64,000 nt of DNA from assembly GCA_965242865.1 (NCBI GenBank), contig CBDETK010000013.1:416001-480000 (forward strand), read 5' to 3'. Below are positions 6,468 to 16,394 of this stretch, piece after piece. This DNA comes from Candidatus Latescibacterota bacterium. Its GTDB lineage: Bacteria > Latescibacterota > UBA2968 > UBA8231. The number at the start of each line of letters is the position of its first letter. Within the stretch, counting starts at the first letter, position 1. Both the position numbers and the translations under genes were made by a program. The notes beneath the pieces are model-generated. The model saw only the letters and a program-made list of their open reading frames with translations. It did not search any database and was not told the origin of the DNA.

Positions 6468-7523
6468 TTAGTCCACCGCGGGATTTTCCAAATACGCCAG
6501 CAGCAACCGCGCCGCGTTGACGATGCCGTCCCACGCGCAGATTTCGTACCCGTGCGTGTTGTCGCCCGGGTAGCCAATCAGCGCCGCGCGCCCAATGGCA
6601 CCGGACGTTTTGGCAATGGACGAGTCGCTGGAGTACGAAGTGAGGACGGCCGGTTGGATGCCGAACCCGCCGACCGCGGCGAGGGCGTCAAAGCGGTCGA
6701 TGATGCGTGCGTCGTACAGGCCGCGGCTGTCGCGGACGCCGATGATAGGGTCGCCGCTGTTGGCCGTGCCATACTCAGCCGCGACCGGCGCAATGTCGAT
6801 GGCAACAGCCGCTTCTACCGGCAGCCGCCCGAGCGCGTACAGCGCGCCGTGCCCGCCGATTTCTTCGCTGGAACTGGCCACGAGATATACGTCTTGGGCC
6901 GGCCGGTTCGCCCGCAAGTGCAAGCCCACTTCAAGCATGATGGCCAAGCCGGCGCGGCAATCGAGGTTGTAGCCGCAGACGCAATCGCCTAGCCGCCAGA
7001 GTGCCTTGTGCCTACCGGCGATGACCACCCGGGTGCCGGCGCGCACCCCGCGCTGGGCCAACTCCTCGGGCGCGAGCCTCGTTTCAATCCACATCTGTTC
7101 CCATTTGAGGGGGTGGTCGTCTTTGAGCCGCCCGGCCGGACTCTCGGTGGAGACGTGCTTGGCGCCGATGGAGAGCACGCCCGGGCACAGACCGTCCCGC
7201 GCCATGATCTCGACCGGGCTTTCCCCGAGTGCCCAAGGGTGCAAACCGCCCAAGGGCTGCACCCGGATTTTGCCATCGGCTTCAACGCGCTTGACGATGA
7301 GGGCGATCTCGTCCTTGTGGGCGAGGGCTGCCACGGGCTGATCGCAGCGTTGGCCCTTGACGTGGATGATGATGTTGTCGGCCGCATCCTGCCAGACAGC
7401 GTCGCCGATGGGGGCGGCGAGCTCGGTGACGAGGGCGTCCATCGCGGCTTCCGCGCCCGAAGGCGCGTGTGCGGCGAGCAGCTGCTCGACAAAGCCGTAA
7501 AGGCGTTGGGCATCAATGGTCAT
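6468..7523 (-). CDS. M42/M20 family metallopeptidase
   Basis: AHKDE, NLDCR, SEEIG and THGYE metal-binding motifs; start placed at MTIDAQ. Confidence 0.85.
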   Translation of the reverse strand: MTIDAQRLYGFVEQLLAAHAPSGAEAAMDALVTELAAPIGDAVWQDAADNIIIHVKGQRCDQPVAALAHKDEIALIVKRVEADGKIRVQPLGGLHPWALGESPVEIMARDGLCPGVLSIGAKHVSTESPAGRLKDDHPLKWEQMWIETRLAPEELAQRGVRAGTRVVIAGRHKALWRLGDCVCGYNLDCRAGLAIMLEVGLHLRANRPAQDVYLVASSSEEIGGHGALYALGRLPVEAAVAIDIAPVAAEYGTANSGDPIIGVRDSRGLYDARIIDRFDALAAVGGFGIQPAVLTSYSSDSSIAKTSGAIGRAALIGYPGDNTHGYEICAWDGIVNAARLLLAYLENPAVD

Positions 7524-7527
7524 CGGG

Positions 7528-8442
7528 TCATTCTGCTTCCAGAACGTCCGGGTCGAGTTGATACCAAAACACCGTGCCGGATTTAATGAGGTCCTGTATC
7601 CGATCATCGCGGCGCAGGCCAGCGACCGCAGGGTATGAACGCCTACCTGTGAACTCGGTCAGCAACTCGGCGTTGCGCATGGCTCGACGGGTATCCCGTC
7701 CATTGGCGGTGAAGGAGATTTCTACGGCAATGTAACAAGGATCGCCATCCGAGTCCGTGGCCTCCATAATCAGGTCGGCCCGGCGGTAGCTTTTCAACTC
7801 GTTTGCGGGAATGATCGACGTGTTGGCTTGGTCGGTCATCATCCACAGATCATCTTGAGTGAGGGTTTTTGTCCGCCGCAGGCCCATTTCCCTAGCGATG
7901 CTAGTGGCTTCTCTGAGAGCGGCGGTGCGGGCGTGGCTGCCTTTGAGTATGCCGAGATCCGTTTGGATAGACCTCACTTGGGTTTTGAGCGTGCCGACAT
8001 CTTCTTTGAGTATGCTGACGTCTTTTTTGAGCGTACTGACCTCTTCTTTAAGCGTACTGACGTCTTCTTTAAGCGTACTGACGTCTTTTTTAAGTATGCT
8101 GACGTCTTTTTTAAGTATGCTGACGTCTTTTTTGAGCGTACTGACGTCTTCTTTAAGCGTACTGACGTCTTTTTTAAGTATGCTGACGTCTTTTTTAAGA
8201 ACGCCGACATCTTTTTTGAGAGCCTCTACTTGGGTTTCAAGGGCATCAAAACGTCGGTTCGTGGCCTCGACGAAGCTGTGCATCTCGGCGACGAAGCTGT
8301 GCATCTCGGCGACGAACTGAGTGAACTTTTGGGGCAGTTCGAGCAATTCGCGCGACAGCAGCCGAGTGCGCAGGGCCTCAACCCAATCGGGGTTTTCGTC
8401 CAGTGCGTGAAGCAGGTCTTCTATGGTATGGATCGTGGTCAT
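7528..8442 (-). CDS. Coiled-coil heptad-repeat protein with a possible C-terminal PD-(D/E)XK-like domain
   Basis: 11 LK(K/E)(D/E)V(S/G)x heptads; C-terminal RADL...IAVEIS motif. Confidence 0.7.
   Translation of the reverse strand: MTTIHTIEDLLHALDENPDWVEALRTRLLSRELLELPQKFTQFVAEMHSFVAEMHSFVEATNRRFDALETQVEALKKDVGVLKKDVSILKKDVSTLKEDVSTLKKDVSILKKDVSILKKDVSTLKEDVSTLKEEVSTLKKDVSILKEDVGTLKTQVRSIQTDLGILKGSHARTAALREATSIAREMGLRRTKTLTQDDLWMMTDQANTSIIPANELKSYRRADLIMEATDSDGDPCYIAVEISFTANGRDTRRAMRNAELLTEFTGRRSYPAVAGLRRDDRIQDLIKSGTVFWYQLDPDVLEAE
7990..8220 (-). repeat. In-frame 21-bp tandem repeat, 11 copies
   Basis: Near-identical units such as TCTTTTTTAAGTATGCTGACG on the + strand. Confidence 0.9.
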
Positions 8443-8557: not shown

Positions 8558-9166
8558 TCAGGCCGGTGCGGCGAGCGGCCCAATCACTTCTTCGGCCAGC
8601 CCGCGCAAGGTCTTTTGCAGCCGCAGGCGGCCCCGGTTGACGCGCGATTTGACCGTGCCCACGGGGCAATTAATGATCTGGGCAATTTCCTCATACGAGA
8701 GCCCATTCATATCGCGGAGGAGCACGGCGGCGCGAAACTCTGTCGGCAGCCCCTCAATGGCATGGACGACGAGGGACTTGACGCGGGTGCCATCGGTCTG
8801 TTCGCCGGGCAGGGGGTCTTTGGCCACCGGCTCGTAAAAGGCGGCGGGCTGGTCGTCGTCACTGGGGCTGATCGGAACCCAATGCCAGCGCTTGCGGCGG
8901 CGCAGTTCGGTCTTGGCCAAATTGCCGGCAATGGTGTAGAGCCAAGTGGAAACCTGTTCGATGGCTGGGTACTGGTGGCTGTGGCGCAGGCAGCGGAGAA
9001 AAGTCTCTTGGACGATGTCCTCGGCCGTTTCCCTATCGCCGACAAAGCGATAGACGAAATTGTACAAAGGGGTGCGGTAGCGTTTGACCAGTATGCCGAG
9101 GTGGCCTTGGTCCTCAGCGGCCCGCAGCAAAACTTCCCTATCTGTGAGCTCCTTCGTCGCTTCCAT
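8558..9166 (-). CDS. ECF RNA polymerase sigma-70 factor (RpoE-like)
   Basis: [17 protein letters not shown] and [22 protein letters not shown] motifs; AAGGAG RBS. Confidence 0.92.
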
Positions 9167-9262
9167 GGTTGTGCTCCTTTTGGGTGACGTGCGCCGCTTG
9201 CTGAAGGCAAGGCGACACAACTCAAGCGATTATCGTCGTGGCTATACGGCTAACGTAAACTT

Positions 9263-9278
9263 AGCAAGAACCGTGCCA
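9263..9278 (-). promoter_or_regulatory. Sigma54 (-24/-12) promoter upstream of the ECF sigma gene
   Basis: Minus strand reads TGGCAC-GGTTC-TTGCT, a match to TGGCAC-N5-TTGCW. Confidence 0.75.
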
Positions 9279-9354
9279 TTGCTCGCGGAGGCGAAAATAG
9301 GCCCCTTTTCGCCCGTTTTTAGGGGGTATTGGCCACAAAAAACCGAATGCAGCA

Positions 9355-9386
9355 CTCAGAAATCTGAGGGTCCTCAGAAATCTGAG
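9355..9386. promoter_or_regulatory. Tandem palindromes, candidate enhancer (UAS) or operator
   Basis: CTCAGA-AA-TCTGAG at 9355-9368 and 9373-9386. Confidence 0.55.
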
Positions 9387-9470
9387 GCTCGTCTTTTGAC
9401 AGATTTTGGGGCAAACAGTAGATTTCGCGCCGGTAAAATTCGCGTAATTGCTGGCGATGGAGGGGTGCTC

Positions 9471-10076
9471 GTGCAAGAGTTGACCACGCGCTTGGCGGCC
9501 TTGTGCCAAGCCAAGGGGGCCGAGAAATTCTCGGCCGAAGAAATAGTCGAGCTATTGACCGACGGCGAAGAGGTCGATTGGATCGTCGATCAAGTGCTAC
9601 CGGCCGCGGCGGAGGCCGATCGCCGCGAAATGGGCCAAGTACTGGCCGAAATAGCCGATGCGGTGGCACCGGCTCCCGCCCCCGGTGCCGAGGAACCGGG
9701 GGCCGTGGAGGAGGTGGACTTGTTCCTGCAAGCTCTGCCGGCCGGGGTTGACGTGCAGCAGGTCGAGGACCTGTTGCGCTCGCCGCAAGGGGCTTTGCTG
9801 GCCGATTTTAGTGCTTTTTGCCAAGAGCGCGGGTTTGAGGACGAGGGGGACGAAGCGGCGACGAGCGAAGCCGTAATGGAATTGCACGAGGAATGGCTAC
9901 AGACGCCACGGCCGGCGCTAGAAGGCGAAAAACCGGCCGCCGTGCTGGAGGGCGGTCGGCTCTTTCCCAGCAAGGTCGAGCCCTTCCGCCGCCAAACCCC
10001 CAAGGTCGGCCGCAACGATCCGTGCTCCTGCGGCAGCGGCAAGAAATTCAAAAGATGCTGCGGCCGGGCCGCTTGA
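9471..10076 (+). CDS. SEC-C metal-binding motif protein
   Basis: C-terminal [20 protein letters not shown]; start inferred from GGAGG RBS. Confidence 0.8.
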
Positions 10077-10077
10077 G

Positions 10078-10617
10078 ATGACCCAGCTCCACCCCTCTAC
10101 GGTCATTGAAGGCGTTTATGTCGCCGAGCTGCAATCGCACGGCGACGAGCGGGGCCGCTTTACCGAGGTGTATCGCAAGGAGTGGTTTCCCCAGCACAGC
10201 TCCGCCCTACAGTGGAACCGTTCGGACTCGCAACGGGGCGTGCTGCGCGGCCTGCACTATCACCACCGCCAAGTTGACTACTGGCACTGCGGCCTGGGCG
10301 CGTTGCGCGTCGGGCTGCTCGATTTGCGCCGCAGCTCGCCGACCTGCGGTCGGGGGCAGGTCATCGGATTGGGTCAAGAGCTATTGCAAGGCGTCTTTAT
10401 TCCGGCGGGGGTCGCGCACGGCTTTTACGCCGTTACCGACGCCATGCTTTTTTACTTGGTCGATGCTTACTACGACGGCACGGACGAGTGGGGGGTGGCT
10501 TGGGACGATCCCGACGGGGGATTGGACTGGGGCATTGCAGAGGGGCCGATTCTCTCTCCGCGCGATCGGGCGAACCCGCGACTGCGAGACATTCCCGCCG
10601 AGGATCTGCCGGGCTAG
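10078..10617 (+). CDS. rfbC: dTDP-4-dehydrorhamnose 3,5-epimerase family protein
   Basis: DERGRF, GVLRGLHY, IPAGVAHGF and WDDP motifs. Confidence 0.85.
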   Translation: MTQLHPSTVIEGVYVAELQSHGDERGRFTEVYRKEWFPQHSSALQWNRSDSQRGVLRGLHYHHRQVDYWHCGLGALRVGLLDLRRSSPTCGRGQVIGLGQELLQGVFIPAGVAHGFYAVTDAMLFYLVDAYYDGTDEWGVAWDDPDGGLDWGIAEGPILSPRDRANPRLRDIPAEDLPG

Positions 10618-10665
10618 GATACGTTGTTCGACAGCCGGGTACAAGGTTACAAAGGAGGTTACCGA

Positions 10666-11535
10666 ATGATTGCAGAGACGAGCACCGTAGTCTATCGAGC
10701 CATCAGCTTGGGTGCAGGAGCCCAGAGTTCAGTCCTAGCACTTCTCTTGTCTCGGTCTAACGCTCGCTTGGTCGAACTTGGGTATCCCAAGCCGGACGTC
10801 GCTATATTCGCCGACACCGGATGGGAGCCAGACTATGTGTACCGTCACTTGGACTGGCTCGAGGAGCAACTTGAGTATCCATTGCTTCGAGTGTCAGATG
10901 GCGACCTGAAGACCAACTTGAAAAAAGGACGCACGGTATCGAACCATCGCTTTGTCGATGTCCCTTTGTTCATGGTCAATCAGGATGGCAAGAAGGGCAT
11001 GCTGCGACGACAATGCACCAACCACTACAAGATCAGACCTATCTATCGGCGGATCAGGGAACTTGCAGGTGGACAGCGTGGACGGCCATTCCCGAAGGGT
11101 ACGCATGCCGAAATGTGGCTTGGGATTTCACTAGACGAGGTAGGCCGCATGAAACCGAGTAGGGAACCTTGGGTTGAGCATCGCTGGCCGCTTGTGGACC
11201 TCGGCATGTCGCGCCGCGATTGCGTTGAGTGGTTCGCCGCGGAGTATCCAAGCCGCCACTTGCCTAGGTCGGCCTGTGTAATATGCCCGTATCGGTCCGA
11301 CGAACATTGGCTCGAACTAAAGCGGTCGGAACCAGCCAGCTACGACGAAGCTGTAGAGTTCGACCGTTGGCTCCGACGAAGCAAAAAGACCCCTGTACGC
11401 AAGTTGCTGAATGGTCGCCCATACCTTCATGCCGCACGGCGGCCTCTTAGCAGCATCATAGAAGAACGGGAGATGGAAGGCGCGAACGAGATCAACAACT
11501 TCAATAACGAGTGCGAGGGCCTCTGCGGTGTCTGA
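10666..11535 (+). CDS. PP-loop adenine nucleotide alpha-hydrolase / PAPS-reductase-like Cys-rich protein
   Basis: ISLGAGAQSS PP-loop variant, FADTGWE, RQCTNHYKIRPI, GISLDE, RSACVICPY, ECEGLCGV; AAGGAGG RBS. Confidence 0.75.
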   Translation: MIAETSTVVYRAISLGAGAQSSVLALLLSRSNARLVELGYPKPDVAIFADTGWEPDYVYRHLDWLEEQLEYPLLRVSDGDLKTNLKKGRTVSNHRFVDVPLFMVNQDGKKGMLRRQCTNHYKIRPIYRRIRELAGGQRGRPFPKGTHAEMWLGISLDEVGRMKPSREPWVEHRWPLVDLGMSRRDCVEWFAAEYPSRHLPRSACVICPYRSDEHWLELKRSEPASYDEAVEFDRWLRRSKKTPVRKLLNGRPYLHAARRPLSSIIEEREMEGANEINNFNNECEGLCGV

Positions 11536-12775
11536 AACAGGGCTGATAACGGTCAGTCCTAAGTTCCCGCTATATCCCTATCAGCGGCAGGTGCTGACTG
11601 ACATCGTCCGTGCCCTATCATCTCCTGAGCGTCGAGCTGTGGCTCATCTTCCCACCGGTGCCGGAAAGACCAGAATCGCAGCTCATATAGCCTGCCACTT
11701 GCTGAATGAGAAAGATACCAACGATTCCCTCGTCATCTGGTTGGCGGCTACAGAGGAACTTTGCGAACAGGCGGCAGACCAACTCTCAGAGGCTTGGACT
11801 CATCTGGGACGACGAGATGCCTGCATTCATCGACACTGGGGAAGCCGGTCGCTTGATCTAAGGCGTCTCCCAGCTGGGTTCTTGGTGACAGGTCTTGCCA
11901 AACTGCGCTCCGCTGCATTCCAAGACAACACCCTTCTTGCCCACCTTGCCCACTGTGTCGCGGCCATCATCTTTGACGAAGCTCATCAGGCAGTTGCGAA
12001 AACCTACTCCTTTATAACTGAGCAGCTATGCAGTGTAAGGCCGCCACTTCTCGGTCTTACGGCCACGCCGGGCCGCTCAGCGAATCTGACTGAGGACGAC
12101 TATCGACTTGCCGGCATGTTCAATCACAACAAAGTTTCGATAGACCCACGAGGCCACGCCAATCCCGTCACCTATCTCATCCAAAACCGCTACTTGGCCG
12201 ACCCGCGCTTTGTGCCAGTCAGCTTCGAGTCTGATGCTGCCATCGCAGACCCGCAACCCGGCATGGATTACAGCAAGGATGATCTTGACCATATAGGCCA
12301 CAACCGCGAACGTACTGGCAGAATCGTCGAACTCGCTGAGGCCGCGGCTGCACGACACCTTCGCACCCTTGTGTTCTGCCCGTCGGTAGAAAGTGCCTTG
12401 GAATGCAACAAAATTCTGCGAGAAAAAGGGGTCGTAGCTAACGTCATTACCGCCAATACTCCCGGTGAAGACCGGCGAGTTATCATCGACGGTTTCAAAA
12501 GTGCCAGCAGGGATCATATCGTGTTGTTTAACTACGGCGTACTCACCGCCGGTTTCGACGCACCCCGGACGCGATGCGTCATCATCGCTCGCCCGACTAC
12601 TTCTCTAGTGCTTTACTCGCAAATGGCGGGACGAGCGATGCGCGGCCCTAGGGCAGGTGGAAATTCAAAAGCTGAGATACTCACCGTTGCCGACACGAAT
12701 CTCCCGGGATTCGGGTCTGTGACTGATGCCTTCACAAATTGGGAGGAACTATGGTCGACCAACTCGCCGAACTAA
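11528..12775 (+). CDS. SF2 DEAD/DEAH-box (ResIII-like) helicase
   Basis: PYQ, LPTGAGKT, DEAH, GLTATP, LTAGFDAP and QMAGRAMR motifs. Confidence 0.92.
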   Translation: MSETGLITVSPKFPLYPYQRQVLTDIVRALSSPERRAVAHLPTGAGKTRIAAHIACHLLNEKDTNDSLVIWLAATEELCEQAADQLSEAWTHLGRRDACIHRHWGSRSLDLRRLPAGFLVTGLAKLRSAAFQDNTLLAHLAHCVAAIIFDEAHQAVAKTYSFITEQLCSVRPPLLGLTATPGRSANLTEDDYRLAGMFNHNKVSIDPRGHANPVTYLIQNRYLADPRFVPVSFESDAAIADPQPGMDYSKDDLDHIGHNRERTGRIVELAEAAAARHLRTLVFCPSVESALECNKILREKGVVANVITANTPGEDRRVIIDGFKSASRDHIVLFNYGVLTAGFDAPRTRCVIIARPTTSLVLYSQMAGRAMRGPRAGGNSKAEILTVADTNLPGFGSVTDAFTNWEELWSTNSPN

Positions 12776-14604
12776 AAGACGCCGATCGCAGCCTCTTTCC
12801 AAGCGATTTAACCATACGTGCTCTACGAGATAGTCGGTATCACAACACCGCCTATGCCATTGCCGAACTCATCGACAACTCGATAGAGGCAAATGCTGGA
12901 CAGATTGACCTCCTCTGCATGGAAGAGCCTCAGAGAGTAAGGGCGCGGACTCAGCGACGAGTTTCCGAAGTGGCGGTCCTTGACAACGGCGATGGGATGG
13001 ACGTAAAGACCCTCCTTGACGCCCTCAAATTTGGCGGGGGAACCCGTCATAATTCGGATAGAGGAGTAGGGAAATACGGCATGGGCCTCCCCACCTCGTC
13101 GATGTCGCAATGCAAAAGGGTGGATGTATGGACGTGGCAGGATGGCCTAGATTCGGTATGGCACTCCAGCATAGACGCTGACGACATCGAGCAAGGGGAC
13201 CATGAGGTTCCCATTCCCGATCAAGAGACGCCTATACCCGAGGTCTGGAGAGAGGCCGGCAGCGACAAAATATATGAACATCGCTCGGGTACGCTTGTCG
13301 TTTGGAGCAAACTGGACAAAATTCAGTGGAGAACCGGCAGCACGATCCTCAGACACACAGCCCGAGAGGTCGGTCGGATCCATCGGCACTGGATTGATGC
13401 GGAGATGACAAAAATACGAGTCGGCTTTTTTCTCAAAAACCGCCCTACCGAAATTGAGAGCGAGGACTGTATTGTCGCAAACGATCCTCTCTACCTGATG
13501 AATCCTTCCTCTACTCCTGTGCCTTGGAGTAACGAACCGATGTTTAGAGAATGGGCCAAGAAAGAATATACGCCTACCGTGGAGGGCAAAGAGGTCACTA
13601 TTGAAGTGAAGTATTCAATCGTTAAGCCTGAAGCCTTGCAGACGAGCAGAGTTACGCAGAATCCCGGTGCTGAAAAGCATGGTACTCACGCCAGACACAA
13701 CATCGGCGTATCGGTCGTTCGGGAGGACAGGGAGATTGTGCTCGAAGACGCCTTTCTTAGGGAAGGTGGCAGTGCTGAGAATCCACAGAACCGCTGGTGG
13801 GGTTGCGAGGTGCATTTCCCTCGCAGTTGCGATGAGTTGTTTGGCGTAGATCACAACAAGCAGATGGCTGCAAATTTCACACATGCTGCGAAGACCCTCG
13901 CTCGTGACGACCGTCCCAATCAGGCAATACTAGACGAGATGGGAATCGACGACGACATCATCTATACCATAGTAGGAGATATCCGAGACCAAACACGTGC
14001 CATGATGCGTGAAATAAGGCAGATGTTTGATCAGAGATGGGACTCACAGAATGGGAGTGGCAGAAAAAGCCCCGAAAAGAAAGCCGCGAAGACCGCTACT
14101 GACGCAGACAGAGACGCTATAGAAGCCGGTAAAGAGACGCCGACTAAGACTGATAGAGACCGTGAGCAAATTCCGCCCCAAGAGCGGGAGGCTCGCCTTA
14201 CGGAACAGTTCAAAGCATCTGGTCGGGCCGATCAAGATGCCCAACAACTCGCGAAGCAGTTGGTAGAGGAAGACCTCTCGTACCAGTTCAACTCGGATCA
14301 GCTCGACGGATCCCAGATTTTTAACGTGCGCTCGAACCAAGGAGTTCTGCACATCAATCTCAACACCGACCACCCGATCTATAACCTCCTCAAGCACATT
14401 GAAGACGACCTTCCAGAAGATATAGACGAGAGCAACCCTGCATTCCAAGCCAGCGTTGCGATCAGATTATTGTTGTCGTCGTGGGCTCGAATGGAAGATC
14501 AGACCGAATCACGTGAGGAGCGAATACGCATTCAGGACATTGCCATAAACTGGGGTCGTCAGGTAGATAAGGCCATCAATCAACTGCGCGATAGAGAGGG
14601 CTAG
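12751..14604 (+). CDS. MORC-like GHKL ATPase
   Basis: AIAELIDNSIEA, DNGDGM, GKYGMGL and GTLV Bergerat motifs; C-terminal LNTDHP. Confidence 0.85.
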   Translation: MVDQLAELKDADRSLFPSDLTIRALRDSRYHNTAYAIAELIDNSIEANAGQIDLLCMEEPQRVRARTQRRVSEVAVLDNGDGMDVKTLLDALKFGGGTRHNSDRGVGKYGMGLPTSSMSQCKRVDVWTWQDGLDSVWHSSIDADDIEQGDHEVPIPDQETPIPEVWREAGSDKIYEHRSGTLVVWSKLDKIQWRTGSTILRHTAREVGRIHRHWIDAEMTKIRVGFFLKNRPTEIESEDCIVANDPLYLMNPSSTPVPWSNEPMFREWAKKEYTPTVEGKEVTIEVKYSIVKPEALQTSRVTQNPGAEKHGTHARHNIGVSVVREDREIVLEDAFLREGGSAENPQNRWWGCEVHFPRSCDELFGVDHNKQMAANFTHAAKTLARDDRPNQAILDEMGIDDDIIYTIVGDIRDQTRAMMREIRQMFDQRWDSQNGSGRKSPEKKAAKTATDADRDAIEAGKETPTKTDRDREQIPPQEREARLTEQFKASGRADQDAQQLAKQLVEEDLSYQFNSDQLDGSQIFNVRSNQGVLHINLNTDHPIYNLLKHIEDDLPEDIDESNPAFQASVAIRLLLSSWARMEDQTESREERIRIQDIAINWGRQVDKAINQLRDREG

Positions 14605-14606
14605 GA

Positions 14607-15452
14607 ATGTACGGGCGGCCCGGAGACCTGTTGAGCAATGTTTGTTCAGGTGCCCAACATCTCATCATGGCGGCACCGTACATCAAGGCTGATGCTCTCA
14701 CTAAAGTTCTGGCCGCCGTTAGCCCGGCAGCATCCCTTATATGCATTACGCGGTGGAATCTGCACGACCTCGCGGTGGGTGCTTCCGACACCGAATGCCG
14801 CACTATTGTCACTGAACGTGGAGGCTCATTCAGGCTCCACCCCTCTCTTCACGCCAAATACTATCGAGTCGATAACGTGGTCCTCATCGGGTCTGCTAAT
14901 CTGACCTCTTCCGCATTGGGCTGGTCGCGCCAGCCTAATCTGGAAATTCTCTGTCGTCCAAGAGACGACTTTGACGCGGACGCCTTTCAGCAGTTTCTGT
15001 TTGAAGGAGCAAGAGAAATCGGCGCTGAGGAATTCGCACATTGGGAATCCATAGCTAAAATCGGTGCGCGAGAGGCGGGAAAGGCAGCTAGCGGCCAACC
15101 CCGGCTTGACACTTGGCGACCGGCAACTCGCGACTTTAGGAACTTAGAACTCGCCTATCAGGGTAGAGAAGATGAGATCGCTTCATTCGACGAGCAGCGA
15201 GCGGCGCAGCGCGACATCCACACGCTCCTAATCCCGCCGAGCTCAACCGCTGAACAGGTCCGAATGTGGGCATCGGCTTGTCTGCTTGCTGCTCCCTTTA
15301 CCAACGCCGTGATACGGCTGCATGGTATAGAGGAACCAGATGCTTCCCGCTCGCTTGCTGCGGCCTATAATCTCGGAAGAGCTGAGGCTCGCAGAGACAT
15401 GGAAACTGTCCAGAACTGGCTCGCATTCCTCATGCCAGAATTACTGAACTGA
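14607..15452 (+). CDS. Phospholipase D-like (single HKD) nuclease-family protein
   Basis: APYI, LHAKYYRVD and IGSANLT motifs. Confidence 0.82.
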   Translation: MYGRPGDLLSNVCSGAQHLIMAAPYIKADALTKVLAAVSPAASLICITRWNLHDLAVGASDTECRTIVTERGGSFRLHPSLHAKYYRVDNVVLIGSANLTSSALGWSRQPNLEILCRPRDDFDADAFQQFLFEGAREIGAEEFAHWESIAKIGAREAGKAASGQPRLDTWRPATRDFRNLELAYQGREDEIASFDEQRAAQRDIHTLLIPPSSTAEQVRMWASACLLAAPFTNAVIRLHGIEEPDASRSLAAAYNLGRAEARRDMETVQNWLAFLMPELLN

Positions 15453-15530
15453 AAGGACGCCGATTCTATCGCCGTGCGATCGGGCGAATCCGCGTTGAGG
15501 GATATTCCACAGAGAGGAGATGCCGACCTA

Positions 15531-16394
15531 ATGACATTTGATTTGATAAAAGCCCTCTTAGACACGCAAGCCCTGCGCCTCGCCCCACCGGGCGAAGTCT
15601 TTTGGTACACCTCGGGTACGGTAGGGCCCTACTACCTCAACGCGCACTATCTCTACGGCGGCCCGGCCGCGGCGACCGAATTGCTATCCTTCATCGACGC
15701 GGCCAAAGAGCAGGAGAGCTTCCCCCAGTGCTTGCGGGAGCGCGTCTTAAAGCAGTGCGCTGAGGACGCCATCTATCGCCAAGTCATCGACGCCTTGGTC
15801 GCACAAGCGCGGGCCAGCCGAGCGCGGTTCGACGCAGTGTCCGGTGGCGAGCGCCGCGACTGGTTTTTTTCACTGGCCGTGGCCGAGCGGTTGGGCAAGC
15901 CCGCATTGCTAATTTACAAGGATCGGCGCACCGCGTTATTGGAGGGGGACGCGCTGCGCCCGATAGCGGCCAACGAAATGGACGCGCTGCACGTGGCCGA
16001 TATGGTGACCGAAGCGTCGAGTTACCTCCGCGCTTGGATTCCGGCGATCGCGGCCGGTGGCGGGCGAATCGCCTATGCGGCCAATGTGGTCGATCGCGGG
16101 CAAGGCGGCCTAGAAGTGCTCAAAGCCGAGGGCGTGGCGGCCGGAGCCCTTATGAGGGTGGATGAGGCGTTCTTTGGGCGCCTAGGCGAACTGGGGCAGG
16201 TAGATGAGGCGCAACGGGCGAGGCTGATTGAGTACTACCGCGATCCGTACGGAGCGATGCGGGCCTTCTTGGCGGCGCATCCCGAGTTTTTGCGGAACGC
16301 ACTCCGCGGCGGCGATGCCCGGGCAGCGCAACGCGCCCGCTTGCTCCTCGCCGAAAACCCCTACGCGCTCAACGAGGCCCTCTGGCGGGGCTGA
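15531..16394 (+). CDS. Orotate phosphoribosyltransferase-like PRTase
   Basis: YTSGTVGPYY, SGGERRDWFFS and PRPP loop HVADMVTEASS. Confidence 0.7.
   Translation: MTFDLIKALLDTQALRLAPPGEVFWYTSGTVGPYYLNAHYLYGGPAAATELLSFIDAAKEQESFPQCLRERVLKQCAEDAIYRQVIDALVAQARASRARFDAVSGGERRDWFFSLAVAERLGKPALLIYKDRRTALLEGDALRPIAANEMDALHVADMVTEASSYLRAWIPAIAAGGGRIAYAANVVDRGQGGLEVLKAEGVAAGALMRVDEAFFGRLGELGQVDEAQRARLIEYYRDPYGAMRAFLAAHPEFLRNALRGGDARAAQRARLLLAENPYALNEALWRG

Follow-up and report, generated by a model that had tools for sequence, protein, structure and literature searches.

We describe here a four-gene element in a stretch of 64,000 nucleotides (hereafter the window) from a Candidatus Latescibacterota bacterium (assembly GCA_965242865.1, contig CBDETK010000013.1, positions 416,001 to 480,000), in which a PAPS-reductase-like PP-loop enzyme (gene 1) is followed by a superfamily 2 (SF2 or SFII) helicase (gene 2), a MORC-like GHKL ATPase (gene 3) and a PLD-family nuclease (gene 4). 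Judging by the sequence comparisons set out below, this cassette is probably a stripped-down relative, as yet unnamed, of the Ssp-type anti-phage systems. We give a little better than even chances to its being a compact sulfur-modification and restriction system in which a solo enzyme stands in place of SspABCD. The initial annotation, which was made from the sequence of the window without database searches, had proposed a new modification-restriction operon. That proposal now has comparative support, in that genes 2 to 4 have homologues that neighbour SspABCD (at about 34-44% identity), but the same homologues form a recurrent, unnamed partner of Ssp systems, and the cassette is therefore not a new system unrelated to those already known.

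The triad of genes 2 to 4 beside Ssp phosphorothioation genes

A tblastn comparison of gene 3 with annotated plasmids gave 13 records at a coverage of at least 80%, 12 of which (34-38% identity) represent the 11 distinct loci that were examined. A helicase gene lies upstream of the ATPase gene in all 11 loci and a PLD gene matching gene 4 lies downstream in nine, the gene downstream of the ATPase being without a match to gene 4 on the Agrobacterium and Aminobacter plasmids. SspD is present within the fetched flanks of nine of the 11 loci (303-457 bits for the six SspDs scanned), and these nine also hold some of the following: SspC, an SspB/DUF4007 or DndB-like gene, and a cysteine desulfurase. 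In Pannonibacter, Mesorhizobium onobrychidis and Pleomorphomonas, for instance, sspA-B-C-D is followed by helicase, ATPase and PLD genes in that order. The product of gene 3 is 34-38% identical to the Ssp-linked ATPases over 95% of its length, and that of gene 2 is 39-44% identical to the helicases that follow SspD.

A homologue of gene 3 was also found in 24 of 168 genomes of the phylum to which the window belongs, and the copies fall into two classes. The Ssp-type class (gene 3 at 30-38% identity) comprises 14 loci, 10 of which were fetched, and nine of these 10 carry SspD and SspC together with SspB or a DndB-like gene. In the cassette-type class (gene 3 at 76% identity or more) each of the 12 copies has a gene 1-type gene about 2 kb upstream; four of these loci were fetched, the other copies being judged by coordinates, and SspB and SspC were absent from the flanks of the four. 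Clusters of sspABCD, with or without a DndB-like gene, that continue into the triad were seen both on plasmids (L035, L047 and L049) and on chromosomes (L050-L053 and L055-L059).

By these neighbourhoods the helicase-GHKL-PLD triad has the appearance of a restriction partner of Ssp systems that has so far gone undescribed; PADLOC v2 has no name for it. Wang et al. (2021) noted that 2,211 of 2,678 sspBCD clusters lack both SspE and SspFGH, gave 84% as the share of clusters without a known partner and proposed that restriction partners await discovery (PMC8092258). For sspBCD clusters without a known restriction part, the helicase-MORC-PLD triad would be a concrete and widespread candidate.

That relatives of the triad adjoin SspABCD would equally suit a reversed logic, in which a mark on host DNA switches the triad on, as with SspE, and the triad then hits invading DNA and not every unmarked molecule. 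The activity of SspE depends on modification and is stimulated by phosphorothioate (PMC8092258), whereas SspFGH, DndFGH and DndI have been reported to be toxic without modification (PMC8092258, PMC11662687), and both logics therefore occur among the partners of phosphorothioation. No sequence feature of the cassette separates the two, and we think the reversed logic unlikely.

Gene 1 and the solo PAPS-reductase-like family of phages and plasmids

By profile, gene 1 matched phrog_424, "PAPS reductase" (138 bits, E 7e-40, residues 12-289 covered). Against the PADLOC SspD model it scored 46.5 bits, compared with the 303-457 bits of the six plasmid SspDs, and the PADLOC scan gave no DndC match at E<=0.01. 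Its identity to the six SspDs is 21-24%, as against 37-44% over the full length to solo genes of phages and plasmids (Pelagibacter phage HTVC034P, Geobacillus phage PK5.1, Thermus phage P23-77, a Mycobacterium prophage and alphaproteobacterial plasmids). In a tree obtained by a quick maximum-likelihood search in IQ-TREE, the SspD clade and the solo clade stand apart with 96% support each, and the cassette copies of gene 1 are monophyletic (95%), fall inside the solo clade and are sister to a group of DUF6339 fusions. On these identities and this tree, gene 1 is an orthologue of neither DndC nor SspD and belongs to the solo PAPS-reductase-like family of phages and plasmids; the initial annotation, which had named DndC and SspD as PAPS-reductase-like enzymes of this kind, is to be corrected on this point.

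The family is large, with 4,142 clusters at 50% identity (E<=0.001). In four proteins of about 545 aa (P0128, P0129, P0130 and P0244) an N-terminal DUF6339 is fused to the solo PAPS-reductase-like domain, and a metagenome scan with one of these fusions, P0128, matched solo forms only, aligned to its C-terminal half.

An AlphaFold2 model of gene 1, built on an alignment of 113 homologues, reached a predicted local distance difference test (pLDDT) value of 93.6, and its fold was matched to CysH, APS reductase, TtuA, LarE, TilS and GMP synthetase with probabilities of 0.97-1.00, and also to NcsA. TtuA, LarE and NcsA are [4Fe-4S] sulfurtransferases. An S-L-G-x-G-x-Q-S loop is conserved across the 113 sequences, and at G16, G18, Q20, R115, C117, C204, C207 and C287 there is no variation or almost none. 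By its predicted fold and its N-terminal nucleotide-binding loop, gene 1 is a PAPS-reductase-like member of the PP-loop/adenine-nucleotide alpha-hydrolase superfamily. We infer an iron-sulfur (Fe-S) cluster because four invariant cysteines are set on a sulfurtransferase-like fold, and the model makes sulfur chemistry plausible. A sequence search of solved structures returned nothing meaningful for gene 1 or for gene 4.

Among the closest solved folds are those of tRNA thiolases and of cofactor sulfurtransferases, neither the ATPase nor the DNA-recognition partner of known phosphorothioation is present, and the family has been described as functionally uncharacterised (PMC11437467). It might be, then, that the substrate of gene 1 is a nucleotide, a tRNA or a protein, or that gene 1 is a regulator or sensor, and that the triad is a modification-independent defence module. 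We consider this quite unlikely. Gene 1 sits directly upstream of the helicase in the position that SspD holds in Pannonibacter and Pleomorphomonas, and the triad is nearly always paired with a DNA-modification module. Moreover, the solo homologues on mobile elements are found in phage replication modules and, on plasmids, beside ArdC, ParB and SSB, and one phage-plasmid encodes the homologue as a fusion with a C5 DNA methyltransferase, contexts that point to DNA.

Domains, motifs and models of genes 2 to 4

Gene 2 carries the Pfam domains ResIII, DEAD and Helicase_C. Its best solved relative is the RadD structure 6jde (E 2e-23), while its score against the NCBIfam RadD model, 112.6 bits, is far under the cut-off of 720; it also matches the SauUSI helicase (E 1e-9) and the helicase region of PbeA (66.7 bits, PADLOC). 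Motifs I, II (DEAH), III and VI are invariant among 22 orthologues.

Gene 3 has a HATPase_c_3 domain (77 bits, 1.4e-21); among solved structures human MORC2 comes closest to it in sequence (E 8e-5), and a weak match to MutL was also found. Twenty-one orthologues share the N-box, G1 and G2 motifs without variation. Taken together, the domain, the MORC2 match and the motifs indicate that gene 3 fits a GHKL/MORC ATPase of the kind that stands beside an SFII helicase and a nuclease.

The PLDc_2 match of gene 4 (24.8 bits, 2e-5) lies under the cut-off of 27, and its matches to DrmC are weak (PADLOC 29.6 bits, 8e-8; NCBIfam 20.9 bits against a cut-off of 133). Its AlphaFold2 model (pLDDT 88.7) has an all-helical C-terminal domain, and the best Foldseek matches are the PLD nucleases SauUSI, Nuc, NgoAVII, NucT and BfiI, while H82, K84, G95, S96 and N98 are invariant among 27 sequences.

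Over the cassette as a whole, each of the four proteins keeps its catalytic motifs without change among 21-24 orthologues, and domain and fold matches bear out the four assignments first made from the sequence: PAPS-reductase-like PP-loop enzyme, SF2 helicase, MORC-like ATPase and single-HKD PLD nuclease. A complex prediction for the products of genes 1 and 2, run without controls, gave a score of 0.00, which speaks neither for nor against binding.

A conserved and mobile four-gene unit

A scan of species-representative genomes recovered 24 loci with gene 1 at 65-96% identity, in metagenome-assembled genomes (MAGs) labelled Latescibacterota, Chloroflexota (several classes), Binatia and Rhodothermaceae. 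The conserved co-occurrence of the four families, which the initial annotation had put forward as a check on its proposal, is seen in 20 of the 24 loci, where all four genes stand in one order; L007 and L024 are cut by contig ends, and L011 and L017 are truncated cassettes. When the open reading frames (ORFs) of the flanks were clustered, only the four cassette genes proved common to at least 21 of 25 loci. Ten neighbouring ORFs were scanned from six loci in other phyla, and the seven that matched a family were all metabolic and differed from locus to locus. Gene 1 is the most conserved of the four, with 65-82% identity in L004, L016, L019 and L020 against 43-49% for gene 3, which suggests that the modules recombine.

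Within the genus, a DNA search placed the cassette in five of 31 genomes. G139, G134 and G133 carry it at the same site between rfbC and smc, G141 carries it at another locus and has an empty rfbC-smc site, and G131 holds a 265-bp remnant of the junction between genes 2 and 3. In G146 and G144, where the site is empty, the stop codon of rfbC runs straight into the ATG of the downstream ORF. In the window, a 73-nt direct repeat brackets the cassette, its two copies being identical at 49 of 73 positions (32 of 36 over the first 36 nt), whereas the best of 30 shuffles gave 38 of 73. The GC content in segments of 500 nt is 0.51-0.57 over positions 10500-15500, lower than in most adjacent segments (0.62-0.67), as the initial annotation had observed.

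From the occupied and empty sites and the flanking repeat, we conclude that the region is a 4.9-kb mobile cassette inserted after rfbC, and the comparison of loci supports the operon as a conserved and horizontally spread four-gene unit. Copies at 65-96% identity in MAGs of several phyla suggest that organisms of one habitat type are actively exchanging a defence module.

These same features bear on a further alternative, namely that the cassette is a module for DNA repair or recombination, composed of a RadD-like helicase, a MutL/MORC-like ATPase and a nuclease, and not a defence system. RadD is indeed the best named relative of gene 2, by the NCBIfam model as well as by structure, and gene 3 has its weak match to MutL. 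A repair module of this kind is nevertheless hard to reconcile with a cassette that is patchily distributed in its genus, moves between phyla, has a lower GC content and is flanked by direct repeats, or with the linkage of the triad to Ssp modification genes; furthermore, operons of MORC, SFII helicase and nuclease were predicted to act in restriction-modification by Iyer et al. 2008 (PMC2292703). We regard this alternative as very improbable.

Two further copies of the cassette may be mentioned for their arrangement. Genome G084 has two cassettes (gene 3 at G084:C1:649738-651597 and 4553536-4555398), the second with an in-frame TAA in gene 3, and in a Dehalococcoidia MAG (L012) the cassette lies between two aldo/keto-reductase paralogues (6665-7582 and 12897-13802).

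Proposed function and modification partners elsewhere in the genome

In the mechanism that we favour, gene 1 would occupy the slot that is held by SspABCD in the related loci and would give host DNA a sulfur-type mark, the sulfur presumably coming from a housekeeping cysteine desulfurase. Genes 2 to 4 would form an ATP-driven restriction part that moves along DNA, nicking or cutting it, and this part would read the mark made by gene 1 as self. The mark-and-cut interpretation given in the initial annotation is, as a whole, partly supported by the gene neighbourhoods. That gene 1 marks DNA, and that the triad would cut unmarked DNA rather than being switched on by the mark, are the two steps in it that we infer.

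The genome to which the window belongs (6.0 Mb, 93.6% complete) encodes housekeeping cysteine desulfurases. SspB was not found in it by tblastn or by hidden Markov model search, and SspC had no credible match, the generic P-loop matches (19.7 bits or less) being seen in control genomes as well; the absence of SspB and SspC partners, first remarked at the cassette, thus extends to the whole genome. Among the other cassette genomes, SspD occurs elsewhere in four of 10 and DndC in one of the nine tested (G089 was left out); of 10 cassette genomes tested, eight lack DndC. Neither SspD nor DndC was found in five cassette genomes (G141, G133, G084, G051 and G082).

The window's own genome has a second locus of sulfur-modification-like character (L148 2855-8527, at about G000:C13 3621850-3627500). 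Its first two genes encode a cysteine desulfurase of the DndA/SspA-like type (519 bits) and a DndC that is short, at 419 aa (388 bits); a DUF262-type HEC-06/Orf5/SspE-N-like protein (243 bits) comes next, and then an SNF2 helicase resembling DpdE/ZorD. No match to DndD or DndE was found in the next three ORFs of this locus, and within the genus the short DndC occurs otherwise only in G139.

Several observations weigh against a sulfur-modification and restriction system with a solo modifying enzyme. According to a review, phosphorothioation as it is known requires, besides a PAPS-reductase-like enzyme, the activities of an ATPase (DndD/SspC) and of a DNA-recognising protein (DndE/SspB) (PMC12707154), and the cassette supplies only the first of these three. 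The match of gene 1 to Pfam PAPS_reduct, 18.3 bits, is under the cut-off of 22.5, its fold matches are modest (template-modelling scores, TM, of 0.35-0.54), and phage homologues of PAPS reductase were termed uncharacterised in a 2024 paper (PMC11437467). The DndA-DndC-like pair of the locus just described lies 3.2 Mb from the cassette, and another source of sulfur marks is therefore possible in this genome. The Ssp-linked helicases, at about 540 aa, have an N-terminal extension of about 120 aa, matching no Pfam family, in every homologue compared; gene 2 of the window is without it, and the mark may therefore be read differently here than by the Ssp-linked triads. The pairing of the triad with a modification module is also incomplete: on the Cyanobacterium HL-69 plasmid (L033) the fetched flanks hold a DndB-like gene and a cysteine desulfurase gene but no SspD, the Agrobacterium plasmid (L031) has the triad with neither SspD, gene 1 nor other Ssp genes in its fetched flanks, and an Ssp-type triad of the phylum (L054, G134:C1:3821096-3822868) has no gene 1 in its fetched flanks and no SspD, SspB or SspC within about 8 kb. 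Lastly, neither gene 3 nor gene 4 was found near solo-clade homologues of gene 1 at any of 80 marine-metagenome loci, 22 of them at least 8 kb long, and the linkage to the triad is therefore limited to one subclade of the gene 1 family.

We note separately that G134, the genome of L054, carries elsewhere a cassette with gene 1 as well as two SspD genes.

A bolder proposal, which we advance tentatively and think rather doubtful, is that a single phage-type, PAPS-reductase-like Fe-S enzyme marks DNA, with a backbone phosphorothioate or otherwise, without any DndD/SspC or DndE/SspB of its own. Such an enzyme may borrow the helicase-GHKL machine to gain access to DNA, and the triad would then be a third restriction partner of phosphorothioation, as yet unnamed. 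Phage and plasmid "PAPS reductase" genes are often annotated as auxiliary genes of sulfur metabolism. If marking by a single enzyme were true, the solo genes would be self-protective, DNA-marking anti-restriction enzymes, thousands of them would be explained, and a very large orphan family of phages and plasmids would have its first function. If, on the other hand, it is the cassette as we favour it that works, it would provide a minimal system of four genes and 4.9 kb for the writing and reading of sulfur-type DNA marks.

Layout of the locus and its neighbours

The four co-oriented and tightly coupled genes were found with the spacing that the initial annotation had given (an 8-bp overlap, a 25-bp overlap and a 2-bp gap), and its coordinates were confirmed (Table 1).

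Table 1. Features of the cassette and of the repeats at its ends (positions in the window).
Feature	Positions	Strand	Remarks
Left direct repeat	10545..10617	+	final 73 nt of rfbC, stop codon included
Gene 1, PAPS-reductase-like PP-loop enzyme, 289 aa	10666..11535	+	ATG after AAGGAGG site
Gene 2, SF2 helicase, RadD/ResIII-like, DEAH box, 415 aa	11528..12775	+	overlaps gene 1 by 8 bp
Gene 3, MORC-like GHKL ATPase, ~617 aa	12751..14604	+	overlaps gene 2 by 25 bp
Gene 4, single-HKD PLD-family nuclease, helical C-terminal domain, 281 aa	14607..15452	+	2-bp gap after gene 3
Right direct repeat, decayed second copy of rfbC 3' end	15459..15531	+	end of inserted island

Gene 1 has an alternative, longer start at a TTG at 10624, which is unlikely because its homologues are about 289 aa long, and gene 3 could likewise begin further upstream, at a TTG at 12739. 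No methyltransferase is present among the four genes, in agreement with the initial annotation, and a scan for promoters and terminators gave nothing beyond shuffled expectation.

The cassette had been placed between rfbC and a phosphoribosyltransferase gene. The upstream neighbour is indeed rfbC (dTDP_sugar_isom, 6e-41); the second label was not confirmed, the downstream neighbour being an ORF of 306 aa (15474-16394) that matched no PHROG and, with the threshold relaxed to E<=1, no Pfam family, after which comes smc. The real start of this ORF is probably the ATG near 15531, right after the repeat, and its own presence at the rfbC-smc site varies across the genus. Further upstream, the ORF at 9084-10076 ends in a SEC-C motif encoded by a 65-nt stretch at about 9999-10072, of which there are two to three copies per genome throughout the genus, at 78-91% identity.

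Comparison with known systems

The initial annotation had not recognised the combination as a named system and had recommended a PADLOC check; neither PADLOC v2 nor NCBIfam gave a named-system match. In the literature we found no description of the triad in the company of either Ssp genes or a solo gene of the PAPS-reductase-like kind, although the supplementary tables on Ssp, Pbe and BREX systems may list such neighbourhoods, and term searches did not find the gene combination in the available portions of PMC12839542, PMC8569181, PMC11662687 and PMC12914056. The restriction partners of phosphorothioation that are listed in PMC11662687 are DndFGH, PbeABCD, SspE, SspFGH and DndI.

With DISARM the cassette shares the weakly DrmC-like gene 4, but it has no match to DrmA, to DrmB (DUF1998) or to a methyltransferase. 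SauUSI consists of just one polypeptide and requires modified DNA. Its PLD domain is the nearest to the fold of gene 4 and its helicase matches gene 2, functions that in the cassette are encoded by separate genes. The solo genes of phrog_424, such as Thermus phage P23-77 ORF3 and Pelagibacter phage HTVC034P gp12, have the invariant cysteine and PP-loop-like motifs in common with gene 1; unlike gene 1, which stands in a cassette with the triad, they stand alone in replication modules or in the leading regions of plasmids.

The Dnd systems (DndABCDE with DndFGH) differ in that no DndC with DndD and DndE lies beside the restriction genes of the cassette, and genes 2 to 4 are not DndFGH. The DndCDEA-PbeABCD systems come closer, as gene 2 resembles the helicase region of PbeA and the domain logic of helicase, PLD and ATPase is in part common to both. 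PbeA, however, unites PLD, ResIII and Helicase_C domains and acts with the SMC-like ATPase PbeC (PMC6459918), whereas the PLD and helicase proteins of the cassette are encoded by separate genes, its ATPase is of the GHKL/MORC and not the SMC-like type, and the small PbeB and PbeD genes and DndCDE are lacking. With the domain logic only partly in common, PbeABCD was ruled out as the family of the cassette. SspFGH was likewise ruled out for genes 2 to 4, since the published domains differ, SspF having a Walker A motif and SspH an FtsK-like C-terminus (PMC8092258); in the PADLOC scan none of SspE, SspF, SspG and SspH matched genes 2 to 4.

The operons in which Iyer, Abhiman and Aravind (2008) found MORC, SFII helicase and nuclease genes together, and which they predicted to be restriction-modification systems, were tied to DNA methylases (PMC2292703). 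They resemble the cassette in that a GHKL/MORC ATPase is linked to both an SFII helicase and a nuclease, in some cases an HKD nuclease, and differ from it in their partner, which is a methylase there and a PAPS-reductase-like enzyme or SspABCD here; the terms PAPS and Dnd did not occur in the portion of that paper that was searched. The Ssp systems, finally, have SspA, SspB and SspC, which the cassette is without, and an SspD from whose clade gene 1 is excluded, yet they share with it the same overall plan, a PAPS-reductase-like enzyme encoded upstream of an ATP-dependent restriction part.

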